Of a stretch of DNA of 20,000 bases, positions 10,758 through 19,998 are shown piece by piece; position 1 is the stretch's first letter, and each line of letters opens with the position of its first letter. The notes under the pieces were generated by a model that worked only from the letters and a program-made list of their open reading frames with translations, did no database searches and had not been told where the DNA came from. Source of the DNA: an uncultured virus (IMG/VR IMGVR_UViG_3300025470_000023) (Duplodnaviria; Heunggongvirae; Uroviricota; Caudoviricetes). Both the position numbers and the translations under genes were made by a program. The DNA is taken from the IMG/VR virus record IMGVR_UViG_3300025470_000023. The stretch is one strand, 5' to 3'.

Positions 10758-10785
10758 ATTTTACACACTTATATTACCCTGTCAA
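10758..10785 (-). promoter_or_regulatory. Sigma70-type promoter overlapping the helicase 3' end
   Basis: TTGACA (10785-10780), 16-nt spacer, TAAAAT (10763-10758); 42 nt upstream of ATG 10715. Confidence 0.7.
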
Positions 10786-13269
10786 CTCCTGTTGATACAT
10801 ATCTAACAAAGTTTCTTGCGCCAGAGTCCTTTCCTCCAAAGCTTTGTAGAGCTGGCGCTCCACGGCTGAGCTAACCAACTTCACCACAAGGCACGGGTTT
10901 CTCTGCCCCGCTCTATGCACTCGGGCGTTCGCTTGTAGCCAGATTTCTGCGGAGGTCACAGGACCGAACCAGATGATCGTATTGGCCGCTGTCAAAGTGA
11001 CACCATGCGCGGCTGACTGAGGCTGAATGATTAGAACGTGCGGGTTGGGCGTAGTCTGGAAGTCATTGAAAATCTCTGCCCTGCGTTTGGCTGACACCCC
11101 GCCGTGTATGGTGGCCGTAGTGATGCCCTGCTTCTCAAGGTACGTCTGTACCATGTCGATTGAATGTCTGAAGTTGCAGAAGATCAGAACCTTGTGGCTA
11201 CTCTCCTGTACGACCTCAAGCATCTCCTCTAACTTATTCTTACAGTCGAACTCGACAACCTCGCCGCTATCCGAATACACCGACCCACAGTTGTGGACGA
11301 TGACGGGACCTTCTTTCCCCGCTACAACAAACCTAGACCGGGGTCCGCAGTTAAGTAGGTCGTAAGTTGCTTCCCTTTGTTTGGGGACGCTTTCAGTGCC
11401 AAATCTATAGGCCAACCCGCCTTCAGGCGTCTTCTCAAGGTGACAGACTTGAGTCCGTATTCCTCTGCTGCTTGTGCTACAGTCATTTTTCCATTCGGTG
11501 TGTCTATAAGAATGTTCACCCTCGTGTTGCGCCCCTGATCCTTGGGTGTAGCCCACCGGCAATTCTCCGGTGAATACGGGCCGTTGTTGTCTATCCTGTC
11601 TAGCGTAAGCCCGTCCTTGTGCATAGGCCCCATATCCGACCAGAACATCTCGAATGAAGACCGCCAGCGTTCGCACACCACAATTCCACGTTCTCCGTAA
11701 TTTTTGTAGTCCTTGTCTAAAGGATCGTGACAACGCGCTACCATGCTGTGATAGTTTGAATACACTGGCTTTTTGCTCATTTTGTGTTTCTCGTTGCCGT
11801 GGTGGCATCCGCAACTTCTTGGGTGCTTCCTGTGCTTTGCTCTTAGATACTGACTCCTGCGAATTACGCGCCGCCCACAATCGCACAGGCAAAGCCACGT
11901 CGCGCATTGCACCGAAATTCCGCTCGTCGTTCCAGCTCTCTCTATAACTGTCAGGTACCCGAACTTCTGTCCTATTAAATCTTTTGCTGGATTTGCCATA
12001 AATAATATCCTCCGCTGTCTGCCATCCTGCGGTGGTGAGAACCCTATGGTCCGAAGTCATACGTACACCGTAGCACTCGCGCACTTCTTTAAGCCCACGA
12101 CATGCCAGCCCATCATGTGCTACCCATTCTTCACCATCCCACACTCTATGCGCTGTGGTTACTTCTTGAATCGGTACCCACCCAACGTCTGTAAGTACAG
12201 GTGTATTATACGCAATACAAGATATTTGTAACAGTTTGTTCATACCCACTGCCGCATTGAACGCTGTGATATCTGCACTGGCAACTTGGATCAGCATCTC
12301 TTTCTTGAGGAGCTTGTAGTATTTCTCCTGTTGCGCTGTGAGGGGCGTGTCACGCTCAGAGTAAAGAAGCTCTGGTAGATCGAGGCACTCATCCTTGGTG
12401 AACCTGATGGCAGGCTGAAGCACCTCATGGACTACCTGCTGTGCCTCGGGTTTGGGGATGTATTTGAACGCGCTGATCTTCAGCATGACTCGATCGCGGA
12501 ACAACCCTACGAACTGCGGAACACTCGTGGGATTCATCATCTTGGCGAGGCCGTAGGCATCGAGTGGGCTCTGTGCCGCAGGTGTGCCCGTCAGCATCCA
12601 CACCCATGTGTCCGGTCCGATCAGGCTATTGATCATCTTCCAACGCTTGGTCGTTGCTGTCTTGATGTAGTTGGCCTCATCCAGAACAATAAGGTCGAAC
12701 CCACCCAGAGCCAGCTCGCTACGCACGGACTCCACACCATCGTAGTTGATAATGACGAACTCGGCATTGGAGTCGATCACCTTGGCTCGCTTGGCTTTCG
12801 ATCCGTGGGCAATGTCTACCCTACGCTTCATGACCGTCCTGAATAGATCTGCTCTCCATGCTGAGTCCATGATAGACAGAGGGCAAATGACGAGTACCCT
12901 GCGAATGAACCCGAGCTTCATGAGATAGTCAGCCGCCCAGATAACGGACACGGTTTTGCCTAGCCCCTGCTCGTTCCAGCAAAATGCTCTACGGTTGAGG
13001 GTCAGAAAGGCGGCGGTTTCCTTCTGGTGATCGAAGGGCGTGTATCTCCCCGGCCAATCGTATTGACGCACGATAGGAGCCGGTGCTTTCTTGAAGCCCA
13101 GATTGCGAAGGATCTTTGTGTTAGGCAGGTTCCATTTGACTGCCACCTCGTAGCCGTTGCCATTGGGTAGCGAAACTTCCTTCACTACCGCAGACTTCGG
13201 AATCACTTCGGTGATCTTCTCTGGATTGCGGGTGCGCACGATGAGTGCGCGGTCCTCTACGATTTCCAT
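10774..13269 (-). CDS. SNF2-like superfamily 2 helicase precursor containing an intein (831 aa precursor, ~521 aa spliced)
   Basis: Motifs EQGLGKT, IINYDG, LDEA, MLTGTP, HGVTLTAA and QANARVHRAGQ. GAGGT lies upstream of ATG 13269. Confidence 0.92.
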   Translation of the reverse strand: MEIVEDRALIVRTRNPEKITEVIPKSAVVKEVSLPNGNGYEVAVKWNLPNTKILRNLGFKKAPAPIVRQYDWPGRYTPFDHQKETAAFLTLNRRAFCWNEQGLGKTVSVIWAADYLMKLGFIRRVLVICPLSIMDSAWRADLFRTVMKRRVDIAHGSKAKRAKVIDSNAEFVIINYDGVESVRSELALGGFDLIVLDEANYIKTATTKRWKMINSLIGPDTWVWMLTGTPAAQSPLDAYGLAKMMNPTSVPQFVGLFRDRVMLKISAFKYIPKPEAQQVVHEVLQPAIRFTKDECLDLPELLYSERDTPLTAQQEKYYKLLKKEMLIQVASADITAFNAAVGMNKLLQISCIAYNTPVLTDVGWVPIQEVTTAHRVWDGEEWVAHDGLACRGLKEVRECYGVRMTSDHRVLTTAGWQTAEDIIYGKSSKRFNRTEVRVPDSYRESWNDERNFGAMRDVALPVRLWAARNSQESVSKSKAQEAPKKLRMPPRQRETQNEQKASVFKLSQHGSALSRSFRQGLQKLRRTWNCGVRTLAVFIRDVLVGYGAYAQGRAYARQDRQQRPVFTGELPVGYTQGSGAQHEGEHSYRHTEWKNDCSTSSRGIRTQVCHLEKTPEGGLAYRFGTESVPKQREATYDLLNCGPRSRFVVAGKEGPVIVHNCGSVYSDSGEVVEFDCKNKLEEMLEVVQESSHKVLIFCNFRHSIDMVQTYLEKQGITTATIHGGVSAKRRAEIFNDFQTTPNPHVLIIQPQSAAHGVTLTAANTIIWFGPVTSAEIWLQANARVHRAGQRNPCLVVKLVSSAVERQLYKALEERTLAQETLLDMYQQELTG
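11290..12219 (-). mobile_element. Intein (310 aa) in the helicase
   Basis: Block A CIAYNTPVLTDVGWVPIQEV (Cys codon 12219-12217), block B MTSDHRVLT, block F TYDLLNCGPRSRFVV and block G VIVHN followed by +1 Cys. The ligated exteins read KLLQIS/CGSVYSDSGE. Confidence 0.92.
11322..11999 (-). CDS. HNH-family homing endonuclease encoded in the +1 frame inside the intein
   Basis: 225 aa: DLIGQKFGYLTVIERA...WLCLCDCG...SCGC, YKNYGERGIVVCERW, LTLDRIDNNGPYSPENCRWATPKDQGRN, and a C-terminal HTH-like segment. GGAGG (12013-12009) lies 9 nt before the ATG. Confidence 0.9.
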   Translation of the reverse strand: MANPAKDLIGQKFGYLTVIERAGTTSGISVQCATWLCLCDCGRRVIRRSQYLRAKHRKHPRSCGCHHGNEKHKMSKKPVYSNYHSMVARCHDPLDKDYKNYGERGIVVCERWRSSFEMFWSDMGPMHKDGLTLDRIDNNGPYSPENCRWATPKDQGRNTRVNILIDTPNGKMTVAQAAEEYGLKSVTLRRRLKAGWPIDLALKASPNKGKQLTTYLTADPGLGLL

Positions 13270-13321: not shown

Positions 13322-13546
13322 TTAAAGCAGGTCGTAGTCTTCGCCGTCAAAGACCTCGAACAGAGTTGGTTTGTTAGGGTTTTTGTTGAAGTACCATGCC
13401 TTCAACTTGGTCAGGTTGAACTTGCGCTCACGCGCGGCAATCTTGAAGGTAAACTGCACCATCGCGTCTACATGACGTTCGATCAGCTCCTCGGGAAAGC
13501 CGGACTCTCGCGCAATATCCTTAACTGCTCTAGTCGCTACTCTCAT
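13322..13546 (-). CDS. Hypothetical protein (74 aa)
   Basis: ATGA overlap with the upstream gene; fits the operon packing. Confidence 0.65.
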   Translation of the reverse strand: MRVATRAVKDIARESGFPEELIERHVDAMVQFTFKIAARERKFNLTKLKAWYFNKNPNKPTLFEVFDGEDYDLL

Positions 13547-13824
13547 TTTTTCTCTGGCTTATCGTACGTACCCTTCATAGAGCCATCACTATTCCGTTTG
13601 AAACTACGATTGGCACTGGGAGATTCTAGGAAGTACCCCGTCTTGTTGGAACCGCCCTTGGATAGCGCCTTCCTATGGGCAATGTCCTTGCCCTTACGAT
13701 CTACACCATCCTTGTCTAGCTTACGCCGAGCGCGTTGGCGCTCTAGCTTAGCTTCAAGTACACCGCCTTTTTTCTTCTGGCGAGCTTTTTCGGTTACCCA
13801 TTCCTGCTTATAGTTCCGTGGCAT
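13543..13824 (-). CDS. Small basic HNH-like protein (T7 gp7.7-like motif)
   Basis: RQRARR...GKDIAHRKALSKGGSN...SANRS resembles DVDHxxPLSKGGSN...NRS small phage HNH proteins. Confidence 0.65.
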   Translation of the reverse strand: MPRNYKQEWVTEKARQKKKGGVLEAKLERQRARRKLDKDGVDRKGKDIAHRKALSKGGSNKTGYFLESPSANRSFKRNSDGSMKGTYDKPEKK

Positions 13825-13825
13825 T

Positions 13826-14494
13826 TTAGTCTCCTTGATGAGGGCAACTCGTTACGTTGCACCACTTTCGGCAAAGACCGTTCGGGCGAGGGTTCCACAC
13901 ATCAGTCTGATAGGCATTTTCCAGAGCGGATAACAGCCCATGCAATTCAGAGAAGATGCTCAACCCATACTCTGCCGAGAAGTCTTGCTTCCTGTGATCT
14001 TTCTTTACTACAAAGAGTAGCATGGTTTTGATCTTTTCTATCTCTGGGTATTTGAGAAACAGGGCAGCGGCCATGAGAGCAAGCTGGCGAGTGTCGGCGT
14101 ATCGGCTTTCTCCTGTCTTGTAATCCAGTACCCATGCCCGATTGCCATCGACAATAACCAAATCTGCAATACCTCGAAACCAAACTTCAGGGTCGTAGTA
14201 ATCGCACGTTTCCAACCGCCCATCGACTTTCTTCACTCCCAATTTCATTTCACAGAACTTCTCGCCCGGATAGGCAACGAGCTTATCGAGGTAATCTTGT
14301 ATAAAGCTGAACCTCTGTGGAATGGGAGTGCCGTCTCGAATGTATTCCTCTGCCGCCTTATGCAGTTGCTCGCCGTAGATAGCCTTCTCTCCTTGCGTGA
14401 AGGGAACTTCCTTGGTGACCTTCTCCGCCTGATACTTGCGAGGGCAAGTCTCAAACGTCTTCAGTGCGCTGTACGACCATGCGGGTTGTTTCAT
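13826..14494 (-). CDS. Cas4-like PD-(D/E)XK exonuclease
   Basis: WSYSALKTFETCPRKY, GEQLH, RGIADL, VLDYKTG, QLALMA, and C-terminal CRKWC...CPH (1+3 Cys pattern). Confidence 0.88.
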   Translation of the reverse strand: MKQPAWSYSALKTFETCPRKYQAEKVTKEVPFTQGEKAIYGEQLHKAAEEYIRDGTPIPQRFSFIQDYLDKLVAYPGEKFCEMKLGVKKVDGRLETCDYYDPEVWFRGIADLVIVDGNRAWVLDYKTGESRYADTRQLALMAAALFLKYPEIEKIKTMLLFVVKKDHRKQDFSAEYGLSIFSELHGLLSALENAYQTDVWNPRPNGLCRKWCNVTSCPHQGD

Positions 14495-16323
14495 GCTTCC
14501 AGTTTCTTCATCTTGAATGACAGGTCTCTACCGTATCCACCCTCGGCATCTAGGGGTAGGCCCTCGGCCCACTTGGGAGGAACGCGAAGCTCGGTGATGA
14601 TAAACCGTCTGGCCTCATCAGCCTCGTCCTCGGGCACTACGCAATAGACCGCATCGTGAATGGTAAGTGCCGCCGGGTACTTCTTGTTGATCCGTACCAT
14701 CGCTTCACCCATTACGCATCTAGCCAACGCTTGAATTGTATTCTGATAGCACTTCGGCCCGTGAATACGTTCAAGTTTCTTGCGTACTTTGTAGCGCCAC
14801 TCGGTGCGCCCGTTCTCTTCCACTTGGTGTAAATCTGGATAGCGTAAGGACAACCCAGACGGCAGTATTATACCATGCTGGCCCATCACTTCGAGGGGTA
14901 GCACCTCACCAAACTGGAAGATGTAGTGATCGCGTATGTGCTGTAGAACCTTCTCGCCTTCATACCACGATTCTTTTACCTTGGTGTACTCGGTACGGTA
15001 GCGGTTAACCAGAGTTTGTGCGAGGTCTTCTCCAATGTCTTTCCCTGACAGTACCTTGATGGCATTCCTGAGCTTCTTATGTCCGGTGCCATAGATCAGT
15101 GAGAGCTGTGATTGCTTGCCGATGAAGCGTTGATCGTCGTCCACTTCCTCGTAGGCTACGCCGAAAATCGGCGCAATGAAGTCTCGATAGAGGTCGCGTC
15201 CTTCGGCAAGTAACTGCACCTTGTCCATCTGCCCGGCAAAGTAGAGACCCACACGGAGCTCGATGTTCGACAAGTCAGCACCCACGATGACGTATCCGTC
15301 AGGCGCAACGATCGCCTTCTTCAGCGTGGACCCACGCGGTACGTTCTGTAGGTTAATTTTATCCGTAGCTGACCATCGGCCCGTCATGGCTCCATAGTAT
15401 TTCAGCGGTACGGGCAGTGCTCCACCGATCTTCGCCATTTCAATGAACCGTTCGGTGCGCGTCTCCTCAAGCGTAGACTTAACACCCACACGCGCGGCGG
15501 CGAGTGTCTGAATACGGAGGTCTTCGTGCTCCAACAGGGCCTTCATTCCTTCGTCAGTCTTGGCGAACGCATAGGCTTGCTTGCCTGTGCGGAGAGACGT
15601 TTTCATGGGAGGCTCGATCCCTATGTCTCGCAGAAGATCAGCGAACTTATCATTGGACATGAAGTAGGCTTGCGCTACTCCGGCATCTGCGAGTAGCTGT
15701 ACTTTCTTCGCCTTCACCGCGTAAAGGTGTTCTTCTAGGATAGGCAGGTCTAGCTGTAGCTTAGGCTCAGAGTGCATTCGACAGGTCATATCAATCAGCT
15801 TGATCTCTGTCTTATCGAACTTGGGAGCCATCTTCTTGAATAGCGCATAGGTCAGGTCTACGTCATTACGACAGTAGGCCATATAGGCAGTCATCTCATC
15901 AGGTGCGAAGTCCTTCCGCTTCTTACCCTTGGCATCGAGAACTTCCTTACCCTTGATCCCCACGCCGTAATAGCGGGTCATCATATCGAGACTGCCCCCT
16001 ACTTCCGTGCCATGCAAAGCGCGACCCATAGACAGGGTATCCAGAATCATCTTGGGCTTATGCCCGAAATGCCACGTAAGAATAGAGGCATCGAACATGG
16101 AGTTATGAGCGAGCATTGCTGAGTTCGCCCAATCGAATTGATCTAGGAAGTTGGCAGTCCCCTGCTTCGTCCCTGTGTAGTGCTTGGTCGGCTCATCGTT
16201 CTTCTTGACCGCTACGCCGATCACTTCAAACTGCGGGTCATCTAGGTACTGCTGAGTGGTCAGCTTTGTCAGGCTGTACTCTTGCGAATAGAACGACTCA
16301 AAGTCGATCGTTAAAATATCCAT
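14491..16323 (-). CDS. Family A DNA polymerase with 3'-5' exonuclease domain
   Basis: ExoI IDFES, ExoII AHNSMFD, ExoIII YCRNDV, TGRWS, NLQN, motif A ADLSNIELR, motif B RFIGKQSQLSLIYG and motif C IHDA. Start is ATG 16323 or 16338. Confidence 0.93.
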   Translation of the reverse strand: MDILTIDFESFYSQEYSLTKLTTQQYLDDPQFEVIGVAVKKNDEPTKHYTGTKQGTANFLDQFDWANSAMLAHNSMFDASILTWHFGHKPKMILDTLSMGRALHGTEVGGSLDMMTRYYGVGIKGKEVLDAKGKKRKDFAPDEMTAYMAYCRNDVDLTYALFKKMAPKFDKTEIKLIDMTCRMHSEPKLQLDLPILEEHLYAVKAKKVQLLADAGVAQAYFMSNDKFADLLRDIGIEPPMKTSLRTGKQAYAFAKTDEGMKALLEHEDLRIQTLAAARVGVKSTLEETRTERFIEMAKIGGALPVPLKYYGAMTGRWSATDKINLQNVPRGSTLKKAIVAPDGYVIVGADLSNIELRVGLYFAGQMDKVQLLAEGRDLYRDFIAPIFGVAYEEVDDDQRFIGKQSQLSLIYGTGHKKLRNAIKVLSGKDIGEDLAQTLVNRYRTEYTKVKESWYEGEKVLQHIRDHYIFQFGEVLPLEVMGQHGIILPSGLSLRYPDLHQVEENGRTEWRYKVRKKLERIHGPKCYQNTIQALARCVMGEAMVRINKKYPAALTIHDAVYCVVPEDEADEARRFIITELRVPPKWAEGLPLDAEGGYGRDLSFKMKKLEA

Positions 16324-16619
16324 TCTTGTCTGCTCCATTGGTCGAGCATTGTTTTTAATTCGTCCACATTCACTTCGTTAACGACGATAGCGAAGCCACC
16401 ACAGCTTTTTATCTGGGCGATCTCCCTGTCCTGTAGTGCTGTGGTTTTCCCCTTTCCGGCCTTTGCCTCGATCGCAAAGAACCGACCACTCAGACAGCCA
16501 ACGAAATCTGGAATCCCAGCTCTGCCATAGCCATTGGCGGGTGGCATGAAGAAATAGCAACCGGGAACAGACTCGAGGACCTTCTTTATCTTGGCTTTTA
16601 TTTTTCCCTCTGGCGTCAT
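16311..16619 (-). CDS. VRR-NUC domain nuclease
   Basis: MTPEGKIK...GIPDFVGC...FFAIEAKA...TALQDREIAQIKSCGG. Confidence 0.88.
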   Translation of the reverse strand: MTPEGKIKAKIKKVLESVPGCYFFMPPANGYGRAGIPDFVGCLSGRFFAIEAKAGKGKTTALQDREIAQIKSCGGFAIVVNEVNVDELKTMLDQWSRQEWIF

Positions 16620-19019: not shown

Positions 19020-19425
19020 CACCCCCTCCTATCTCGTGGTGTTTTTCTGCGAAACGGACGCCAGCTACAAATGTTAAATACTCTGGGGTTCCCATGTTAG
19101 GCAGTTCCTCCTGCGTCATCGGCTTCCTTGCTGGCGAGGGTCTGGTGTAGAGAGCGCGGCGTTTATATTCTGGGTACATCCCGGCGTCATCGAATACGTC
19201 CTTAGCTACATCAATCCACGCAGTGCTGGTTGATCCTTCAGCCATTGCTATTTGATACACAGGCTCTGCTTCTGGTTCTGGTCTGGTGTAGAGGGGTTCA
19301 AACCCATCAGTTTTATGAAACGCTACTATCTGATCTCCATTAGGCGTTGTTCTCATCCACGCCACAGGCTTATCTGCTTCTGGCTCGGCGGCGAGGTTCT
19401 TACGATTGTCTTGCGTAGTTTCCAT
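19012..19425 (-). CDS. Accessory protein with two PVxx...LYTRP modules; start lies inside the upstream HNH gene
   Basis: AEPEADKPVAW...PLYTRP / EPEAEPVYQ...ALYTRP; GAGGAG 4 nt before ATG 19425. Confidence 0.65.
   Translation of the reverse strand: METTQDNRKNLAAEPEADKPVAWMRTTPNGDQIVAFHKTDGFEPLYTRPEPEAEPVYQIAMAEGSTSTAWIDVAKDVFDDAGMYPEYKRRALYTRPSPARKPMTQEELPNMGTPEYLTFVAGVRFAEKHHEIGGGDE
19139..19293. repeat. 14-nt direct repeat (LYTRP module ends)
   Basis: GGTCTGGTGTAGAG at 19139-19152 and 19280-19293; also TCTGCTTCTGG at 19265-19275 and 19373-19383. Confidence 0.7.
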
Positions 19426-19909
19426 GATGCTCCTCTCTGGCTTTTTGCGCGGCTAACACAGCTTCCTCAACAGTCTTAAATGTTCCGATATTTATTTGCT
19501 TGTTGTGTTTCCATATAGAAACCCTGTATGTGCCATATTTCTCTCTGTAGTAGACGTTTTTGATGCCAGAAATGTTGGTCGTTTGAATTTTGCGGTTCCA
19601 ATTATTTTCTGTTGAATTTGCCGGTCTTAAGTTTTCAATTTTGTTGTCCAATCCGTTCCCGTTTATGTGGTCAAGAATGGCATCAGGCGCAGAACCATGA
19701 AACAAAAACCAAACGACATGATGTGCGCGTACTGATTTACCCGGAATTGCTTGAACGCTGTAGTATTTCTTTCGACTAGCCAACGATCCCGCTGGTTTAC
19801 CCTTCTTATTCCTTCCGCTATCCACTTTCCAAACCAAGCAACTTGGGCTTGATTCATCGTATTCATAGCGTTCAGCGGCCCGTCTCAGCAGTTCGGTTGC
19901 AGTACTCAT
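19400..19909 (-). CDS. Free-standing HNH-AP2 homing endonuclease
   Basis: RAHHVVWFLFHG...ILDHINGNGLDNKIENLR...ENNWN plus AP2-like SGIKNVYY...YRVSI...IGTFKTVEEA. GGGAGG and an ATGA overlap at ATG 19909. Visibly AT-richer than the flanks. Confidence 0.88.
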   Translation of the reverse strand: MSTATELLRRAAERYEYDESSPSCLVWKVDSGRNKKGKPAGSLASRKKYYSVQAIPGKSVRAHHVVWFLFHGSAPDAILDHINGNGLDNKIENLRPANSTENNWNRKIQTTNISGIKNVYYREKYGTYRVSIWKHNKQINIGTFKTVEEAVLAAQKAREEHHGNYARQS

Positions 19910-19998
19910 GCTTCCTCCCAAATACCAAGCGCCACATAAAGATCCTTCTTGCATTCGTATTCGGCAATGTCCTCGTGCAAACTGTCTCGGCCAAAGGC
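19906..19998 (-). CDS. 3' end of a hypothetical gene (partial)
   Basis: Open frame AFGRDSLHEDIAEYECKKDLYVALGIWEEA* ending at TGA 19908-19906, overlapping the next ATG. Confidence 0.5.
   Translation of the reverse strand, partial: AFGRDSLHEDIAEYECKKDLYVALGIWEEA

Follow-up and report, generated by a model that had tools for sequence, protein, structure and literature searches.

A nuclease gene nested out of frame in a helicase intein of an uncultured phage, and a large, probably mobile family of phage inteins with the same layout

How can a single stretch of phage DNA encode an intein and, inside it, a nuclease in another reading frame? The question is raised by a virus record of IMG/VR, IMGVR_UViG_3300025470_000023 (Caudoviricetes), of which a stretch of 20,000 nucleotides (nt), here called the window, was analysed. 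The window belongs to a 35.5-kb phage contig that has a replication module of DNA polymerase A, an exonuclease, a primase and an SNF2 helicase, and the helicase gene (matches to SNF2-rel_dom, E 6e-22, and Helicase_C, E 8e-18) is interrupted by an intein with a nuclease gene nested in its +1 frame (Table 1). The intein with its out-of-frame nuclease gene is real and not an artefact. It is likely to be a mobile dual-coding intein, with read-through and splicing of the precursor, separate initiation of the nuclease, and homing.

Table 1. Positions of the elements of the helicase-intein locus within the window (aa, amino acids; dN/dS, ratio of nonsynonymous to synonymous substitution rates; HTH, helix-turn-helix; pLDDT, predicted local distance difference test score)
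Feature	Position	Strand	Remarks
SNF2-family helicase precursor gene	10774..13269	-	ATG 13269, 831 aa; N-extein 350 aa, intein 310 aa, C-extein 171 aa
Class 1 intein	11290..12219	-	930 nt = 310 aa, zero stops; C1...H309-N310, then Cys+1
N-terminal splicing region	12000..12219	-	Block A (C1), block B (T55-x-x-H58); dN/dS 0.03-0.15 (dS near saturation); pLDDT 91-97 over residues 1-70
Intein-frame linker, about 206 aa	11377..11997	-	Predicted disordered; protein unconserved, stops kept out
C-terminal splicing region	11290..11376	-	Block F (D287), block G (H309-N310); pLDDT 92-96
Cys+1 codon	11287..11289	-	First C-extein residue
Nested nuclease gene	11322..11999	-	+1 frame, 225 aa; N-terminal CxC..CxC domain, beta-beta-alpha-metal-type core, C-terminal HTH; mean pLDDT 82
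GGAGG Shine-Dalgarno (SD)-like site	12009..12013	-	9 nt 5' of nested ATG; spelled by intein codons
Predicted active site	11526..11600	-	D134-R135...Y142...N146...N158; no general-base His; PacI-like by inference
Sigma-70-like site GTTACA-16-TATAAT	12205..12232	-	Straddles the N-junction: -35 in extein, -10 in intein codons 4-5; lead only

The insert lies in the helicase at KLLQIS/CGSVY, and 521 aa are left after its removal. Its sequence and predicted fold identify it as a class 1 intein, which would be removed by protein splicing: it is an in-frame insertion for which empty alleles exist, it has the full set of splicing residues, and it is predicted to adopt the Hint fold. In an alignment of 39 intein family members, C1, T55, H58, D287 and N310 are invariant and H309 is present in at least 90%. 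The AlphaFold model of the intein has a pLDDT above 90 at residues 1-70 and 281-310 and mostly below 50 between them, and its top Foldseek matches are mini-inteins (Ssp DnaB mini-intein, E 4e-4). The intein has no Pfam match, and TIGR01445 stays under its cutoff. It departs from the canonical bifunctional intein in that the nuclease between blocks B and F is encoded in the +1 frame and not in the intein frame.

The nested ATG is located 220 nt into the intein, and the TAG ends 32 nt short of the intein end, so that the gene overlaps with block F. An earlier inspection of the letters alone (the sequence-only reading) had described this layout, and re-derivation from the sequence reproduced all of its coordinates and counts, including a GGAGG formed by the intein codons GCG GAG GAT (12013-12009). 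The same reading had named compensating indel errors, which would put the nuclease in frame, as a ground for abandoning the idea. The contigs of all four freshwater runs are free of indels in the intein stretch, with no single contig covering the whole of it, and the contigs of run X8, which is not flagged as a possible source, cover both intein junctions with zero differences. An empty allele of the window's own phage, visible as a joint across the intein, was not seen in the contigs of partly matching runs. No RNA data set is among the 24 runs listed for the sequence, which does not bear on its expression.

The two reading frames are under very different selection. In the six pairs that can be formed among four colinear sequences, dN/dS on the same DNA is 0.11-0.20 in the nuclease frame versus 1.08-2.43 in the intein-frame linker; in the N-terminal splicing region it is 0.03-0.15, with dS near saturation. 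Thus, the linker is mere passage and the nested protein is the selected one. In the diverged contigs of run X11, 20 of 29 listed differences fall on third codon positions of the nuclease. The claim that the intein frame is open beyond chance proved correct: it has 0 stops, compared with a mean of 11.6 in 1000 synonymous-codon shuffles of the nested gene, none of which reached 0. In the +1 phase, an intein-frame stop needs a T at a third position of the nuclease before AA, AG or GA, and therefore a silent T-to-C change removes it. In the window's nested gene, none of the 64 codons in front of these dinucleotides ends in T, versus 41 of the 160 other codons. The same avoidance is found throughout the family, with a mean of 0.06 stops versus 8.7 expected for 33 genes in +1 and 0 versus 3.6 for 27 genes in +2; 19 non-nested homologues from the nuclease scan contain 7-42 stops in the corresponding frame. 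These substitution patterns indicate that the nested nuclease is a separate gene under purifying selection and that the intein frame is actively held open. Two further proposals of the sequence-only reading are thereby strengthened, namely a precursor with an off-frame linker (pLDDT mostly below 50, dN/dS about 1 or more) and a nuclease encoded as a gene of its own (purifying selection, conserved start, SD-like site).

The layout is shared by a large family. Scans were performed with the intein, the nuclease and a profile of each, and five named phages were added; the best 80 of 277 and of 326 matches were kept. Of 332 N-region hits, 313 had a C end (19 were dropped), and these formed 188 clusters at 95% identity. 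Four clusters (L045_1717, L287_450, L063_2958 and L276_2500) had wrong starts or frameshifts or belonged to a different type of intein and were removed; 184 were used. In all 172 clusters of long members, a nuclease open reading frame (ORF) no shorter than 150 aa is present and lies out of frame, with 129 in +1, 43 in +2 and 0 in frame; the other 12 comprise 11 mini-inteins and one member with a partly deleted nuclease. Restriction to those clusters that the splicing-domain profile detected by itself gives the same picture (111 of 111 long members out of frame). Identities within the family range from 25 to 88%, and the flank patterns assign 39 clusters to SNF2 helicases, at more than one nearby site, and most others to three polymerase A sites. 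Two variations of the layout were observed. Two close family inteins occur in one polymerase gene at L246, L283, L340, L397, L267, L413, L378, L231 and L200, often one in +2 and one in +1, and in a clade with a longer +1 nuclease (L050, L054, L058 and L183) the ORF extends 22-31 nt beyond the intein end into the C-extein.

A dual-coding intein of this kind would operate as follows. Ribosomes on the helicase mRNA would translate the intein frame without interruption. The Hint domain, made up of residues about 1-73 and 282-310, would fold around the disordered linker, and class 1 splicing by C1, the T and H of block B, the D of block F, the H-N pair and Cys+1 would release the 521-aa helicase. 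Other ribosomes would start at ATG 11999 with the aid of the internal GGAGG and produce the free 225-aa beta-beta-alpha-metal nuclease. This enzyme would nick or cut an intein-less helicase allele near KLLQIS/CG in a co-infecting phage, and repair would copy in the whole 930-nt element together with about 30 nt of flank; distribution and flanking sequences are consistent with both steps.

The nature of the nested protein deserves closer attention. It matches phrog_374 ('HNH endonuclease') with E 2.8e-60; in Pfam the ORF gives a weak HTH match alone, and its nuclease core is unrecognised by Pfam and NCBIfam. Its best sequence match in the PDB, a weak one (E 0.076), is I-HmuI, which represents a type of phage homing endonuclease; with the core, the PDB sequence search returned one unrelated match only. 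I-HmuI keeps the general-base His, the position of which is given in excerpts of PMC3384342 and aligns with Arg135 of the nested protein. The claim that the gene encodes a complete HNH is thus upheld by the phrog_374 match and fails with regard to the canonical H-N-H of the I-HmuI type, in which a His follows the metal-binding Asp. All 172 nested genes have Arg135, Tyr142 and Asn146, and all but one (171) have Asn158; 27 free-standing relatives share the same pattern of active-site residues, with Tyr142, Asn146 and Asn158 in all 27. Among 48,161 chains, PacI (3m7k) ranked first for the model of the nuclease (Z 6.2, root-mean-square deviation 2.4, 75 residues aligned), a middling score. PacI has no His and uses a loop Tyr instead, as described in excerpts of PMC3384342, PMC5714182 (where it forms group 20) and PMC4081073; the nested protein, for which PacI is the best structural match, resembles it in the missing His, has in the invariant Tyr142 a putative counterpart of the loop Tyr, and differs from it in that PacI is a dimeric restriction enzyme. 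From these similarities we infer a Tyr-dependent nuclease.

Several observations bear on mobility. The 80 best nearest helicase loci include 79 that are empty at the site and one copy of the window locus. An extein tree was built from 21 intein-bearing and 62 empty alleles, without two helicase-site inteins whose upstream DNA was short; the presence and absence of the intein on it require at least 8 changes, versus 18.7 for shuffled labels. The window extein is sister to empty alleles (80% identical, support 99) that have Ser at +1, and the window nuclease is 86-88% identical to nucleases residing in exteins of only 62% and 49% identity. Within 30 nt of the site, the window is more similar to these intein-bearing loci (0.77-0.87) than to its nearest empty kin (0.60-0.63), and the order is reversed at 60-180 nt. 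In the nuclease tree (without L370, which is nested and cut off, and L091-L098), clades follow the insertion site, and the 38 helicase-site rows form one clade (support 98). The patchy spread and the short co-conversion-like tract fit homing, and the element is probably mobile; the same model of mobility has been argued for other inteins, in excerpts of 10.1101/2025.01.02.630785 and in 10.64898/2026.09.14.751524. The proposed uncoupling of homing from splicing can be accepted for the two proteins, which are separate, but not for the DNA, which still moves as one unit according to insertion-site clades, extein tree and flanks. A family intein sits in the DNA polymerase of the phage whose empty helicase allele is the closest one (L101:39-944, PAKCYQN/CIQALARC); this site is empty in the window polymerase (14491-16338).

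The sequence-only reading had also suggested that the locus may show how a free HNH invades a mini-intein. In the nuclease tree, free-standing genes branch between the main +1 clade on one side and the +2 and long +1 clades on the other, and an approximately unbiased (AU) test with 36 of 199 rows does not reject a single origin of the nested nucleases (p 0.46). In a splicing-domain tree of 93 columns, which is poorly resolved, the short members are scattered (10 changes for 12 rows), a pattern that fits repeated loss of the nuclease better than an ancestral state. Because the family is old and widespread and its short members are scattered, the locus represents an old and stable arrangement; a recent invasion is not what the data show.

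Is the nuclease really translated by independent initiation? All 13 helicase-site members that were examined have an SD-like site before the homologous ATG (-6.6 to -9.5 kcal/mol versus backgrounds of -3.2 to -4.1), which ranks in the top 2-12% of positions, and the intein residues that spell it vary (AED, AGD, KEV, AGE, ARD, IKG, CKE, AQE). Alternatively, ribosomes reading the helicase could reach the nuclease by frameshifting or by reinitiation, producing an extein-intein-N-nuclease fusion or coupling the two translations. An internal SD motif is able to stimulate frameshifting, and the open stretch of the +1 frame begins at offset 163, which is 57 nt upstream of the ATG. However, in L075, L077 and L079 the +1 frame opens only at, or one codon before, the homologous ATG, the start and its SD-like site are kept at initiation distance in the 13 members, both +1 and +2 layouts occur, and no stable RNA structure was found around the nested start (z -0.58), all of which makes this route quite improbable. 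A different objection concerns the purpose of the protein, which could be kept for DNA binding or another role in the phage (competition, regulation), with the intein spreading by ordinary recombination. The general-base His is replaced by Arg in all 172 nested genes, and excerpts of PMC5714182 describe His-less groups of this fold that lost activity. Nevertheless, the conservation of Tyr142, Asn146 and Asn158 in nested and free-standing genes, the loop Tyr of active PacI (in the excerpts cited above) and nuclease clades that track the insertion site, as target-specific enzymes would, make a function other than homing improbable.

Two further alternatives would deny the dual-coding intein itself. 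An assembly error or a decayed in-frame endonuclease domain might find support in P0023, a database protein from a single contig in which extein, intein N-part and nuclease are fused in frame, but it is truncated at the nuclease stop, without blocks F/G or C-extein, and is the sole one of 77 longer nuclease homologues with an intein N-region, the C-region occurring in none. With zero indels in four runs and the same layout in 172 clusters and in cultured phages, this explanation has next to no probability and is refuted by the family data. The insert might instead be removed as RNA, as an intron carrying a nuclease gene, and indeed the GenBank record of Sodalis phage SO-1 labels gp38/gp39 'type I self-splicing intron'. 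Yet the protein-splicing residues are conserved (dN/dS 0.03-0.15, dS near saturation), stops are actively kept out of the intein frame, the window has no Rfam match at or above the gathering score, and the Ent1 record calls a related insert an intein; an intron is therefore very improbable.

It should be noted that several points weigh against a mobile dual-coding intein. Splicing, separate translation and cleavage are all deduced from sequence. The survey profiles were built from out-of-frame members, the scans kept only the best 80 matches each, and the finding that none of the 77 longer nuclease homologues is a complete in-frame intein is a blank and as such weak evidence. The near-copy L013 is frameshifted and has two stops in the intein frame. 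As the start sites were picked partly by their SD score, the SD test is not fully independent. The canonical His is missing from the nuclease, the Z score of 6.2 with PacI lies within the commonly met range, and Foldseek with the nuclease model gave nothing at E<=0.001. The 30-nt flanks find a match of about the same quality (0.73-0.80) in two empty alleles of the presumed donor clade, and the tract may therefore reflect target preference; the patchy presence, in turn, could also be explained by repeated loss.

The mobile dual-coding intein can be developed into a more far-reaching proposal. A promoter scan found two sites, versus 1.0 expected, and at the N-junction no more than 3 of 38 helicase-site members have a site that passes it. 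Across the family, promoter-like sites in or beside the N-terminal splicing region are present in 56 of 169 long members versus about 13 expected, and in 0 of 12 short members versus 0.4 expected; this excess is a lead only, because the members are related, which inflates the count, and different clades have different sites. In other clades, near-consensus sites recur at set positions within the splicing region; many +2 polymerase inteins, for instance, have TTGACA-17-TATAGT, the -10 box of which lies at intein nt 47. It is conceivable, if rather unlikely, that the members of this large phage intein family owe their mobility to a separately transcribed as well as translated His-less nuclease, with Tyr142 as base or nucleophile, and that the promoter lies inside the splicing domain and, at the window locus, becomes complete only when the intein inserts, the target gene supplying the -35 and the intein the -10; the arrangement, kept at several target sites and in two frames, would then be a stable end state and not a step toward an in-frame intein. 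If this were true, the chemistry of Tyr142 could imply that homing proceeds by way of a nick and a covalent protein-DNA intermediate.

The sequence-only reading could not confirm that the architecture had been reported; a check of the literature finds it in print. Phillips, DeSimone and Gogarten (10.64898/2026.09.14.751524) describe a cyanobacterial dnaX intein with a LAGLIDADG gene in a +2 ORF and propose a secondary-invasion model; an excerpt of the preprint credits Gorbalenya 1998 for alternate frames. It shares with the window's intein an out-of-frame nuclease on the same strand, putative SD motifs, a disordered intein-frame linker, low dN/dS in the nuclease frame and high dN/dS in the intein frame, and the coexistence of mini and empty alleles. 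It differs in its LAGLIDADG nuclease, one chromosomal site and one frame, whereas the window's family has a His-less beta-beta-alpha-metal nuclease and is found in phages, in two frames, at several sites and in at least two host proteins. According to excerpts of Gosselin, Arsenault and Gogarten (10.1101/2025.01.02.630785), actinobacteriophage inteins carry an EndoVII-like gene on the same strand in frame 3, or antisense LAGLIDADG and VSR-like genes, and invasion of an intein by a free-standing nuclease is proposed. Judging from these excerpts, the likeness consists in a full intein, a nuclease in a separate frame and an unstructured in-frame region; the nucleases belong to other families, the hosts are polymerase, minor capsid, terminase and thymidylate synthase and not a helicase, and the HNH inteins, unlike the window's, are in frame. 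EndoVII is not among the listed Pfam, PHROG or fold matches of the window's nuclease, the Gosselin sequences themselves not having been compared, and a phage-record search with the intein, which matched 194-195 records, has no actinophage genus in its ten most frequent names. The window's intein has the features of the non-canonical out-of-frame-nuclease inteins of both preprints (Gosselin 2025; Phillips 2026), namely frame, selection and disorder, and patchy distribution. The ShiLan element (Arsenault et al., PMC11855218) is described, in excerpts, as an apparently homing HNH gene that lies out of frame within a host reading frame without stops; it has no splicing domain and no detectable ribosome binding site, in contrast to the complete intein and SD site of the window.

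Members of the family itself reside in well-known phages. The intein of the APSE-1 DNA polymerase P45 (NC_000935.1) is 34% identical over all 310 aa and has the same nuclease nested in +1, the RefSeq record listing P46 inside P45 as 'HNH endonuclease'; in excerpts of two APSE papers the intein or the P46 label is mentioned in passing and the nested layout is not discussed. The same nuclease is nested in +1 in the polymerase inteins of Caulobacter phage GB2A and Shewanella phage SFCi1, and in +2 in that of Salmonella LP31, and the polymerases of Jerseyvirus, Gardnerella AB1 and Sodalis SO-1 contain related family inserts. In APSE-1 and the other polymerase inserts the host gene is DNA polymerase A, in contrast to the SNF2 helicase of the window. 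The records of GB2A, SFCi1, LP31, AB1 and Ent1 have no nested gene annotated. The insert of SO-1 with its nested gp39 (L435:2578-3336), annotated as an intron, matches the intein N-region and is probably misannotated. No account of the window's intein family or of its nuclease was found in the open-licence literature, and an earlier description in unsearched sources is possible. Thus, the layout as such is published, and no publication was found that reports the size of the family, its use of two frames, its helicase target or the His-less nuclease.

Some neighbouring genes should also be mentioned. A 176-aa HNH_3 gene on the plus strand (163-693; Pfam E 2.7e-11), with AGAAGG upstream, lies in the +1 frame wholly within an open 2645-aa ORF and resembles the layout of ShiLan, as far as excerpts of its description go. 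The host frame has 0 stops over this gene versus 3.1 expected, a value that 23 of 1000 shuffles reach. The host ORF contains no intein of the helicase-intein family and no Pfam intein domain, none of 29 distant relatives of the gene is nested, and no colinear empty allele was found. On the minus strand, a free-standing HNH_3 gene is present at 19400-19954, and a small basic ORF of 93 aa without Pfam match (13543-13824) adjoins the helicase.

Out-of-frame intein nucleases are called rare in the two preprints (10.1101/2025.01.02.630785, in an excerpt, and 10.64898/2026.09.14.751524). The phage family described here counts at least 172 distinct members, every one of them out of frame, in helicases and at several polymerase sites, and the nested genes are often unannotated in cultured phages. 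Therefore, mobility may extend to many phage inteins that are listed as lacking a nuclease. The overlap is cheap, as silent third-position changes clear all stops. Cultured and harmless Caulobacter phages offer a test system for independent translation and homing, and the activity of the widespread His-less phrog_374 nucleases becomes testable.

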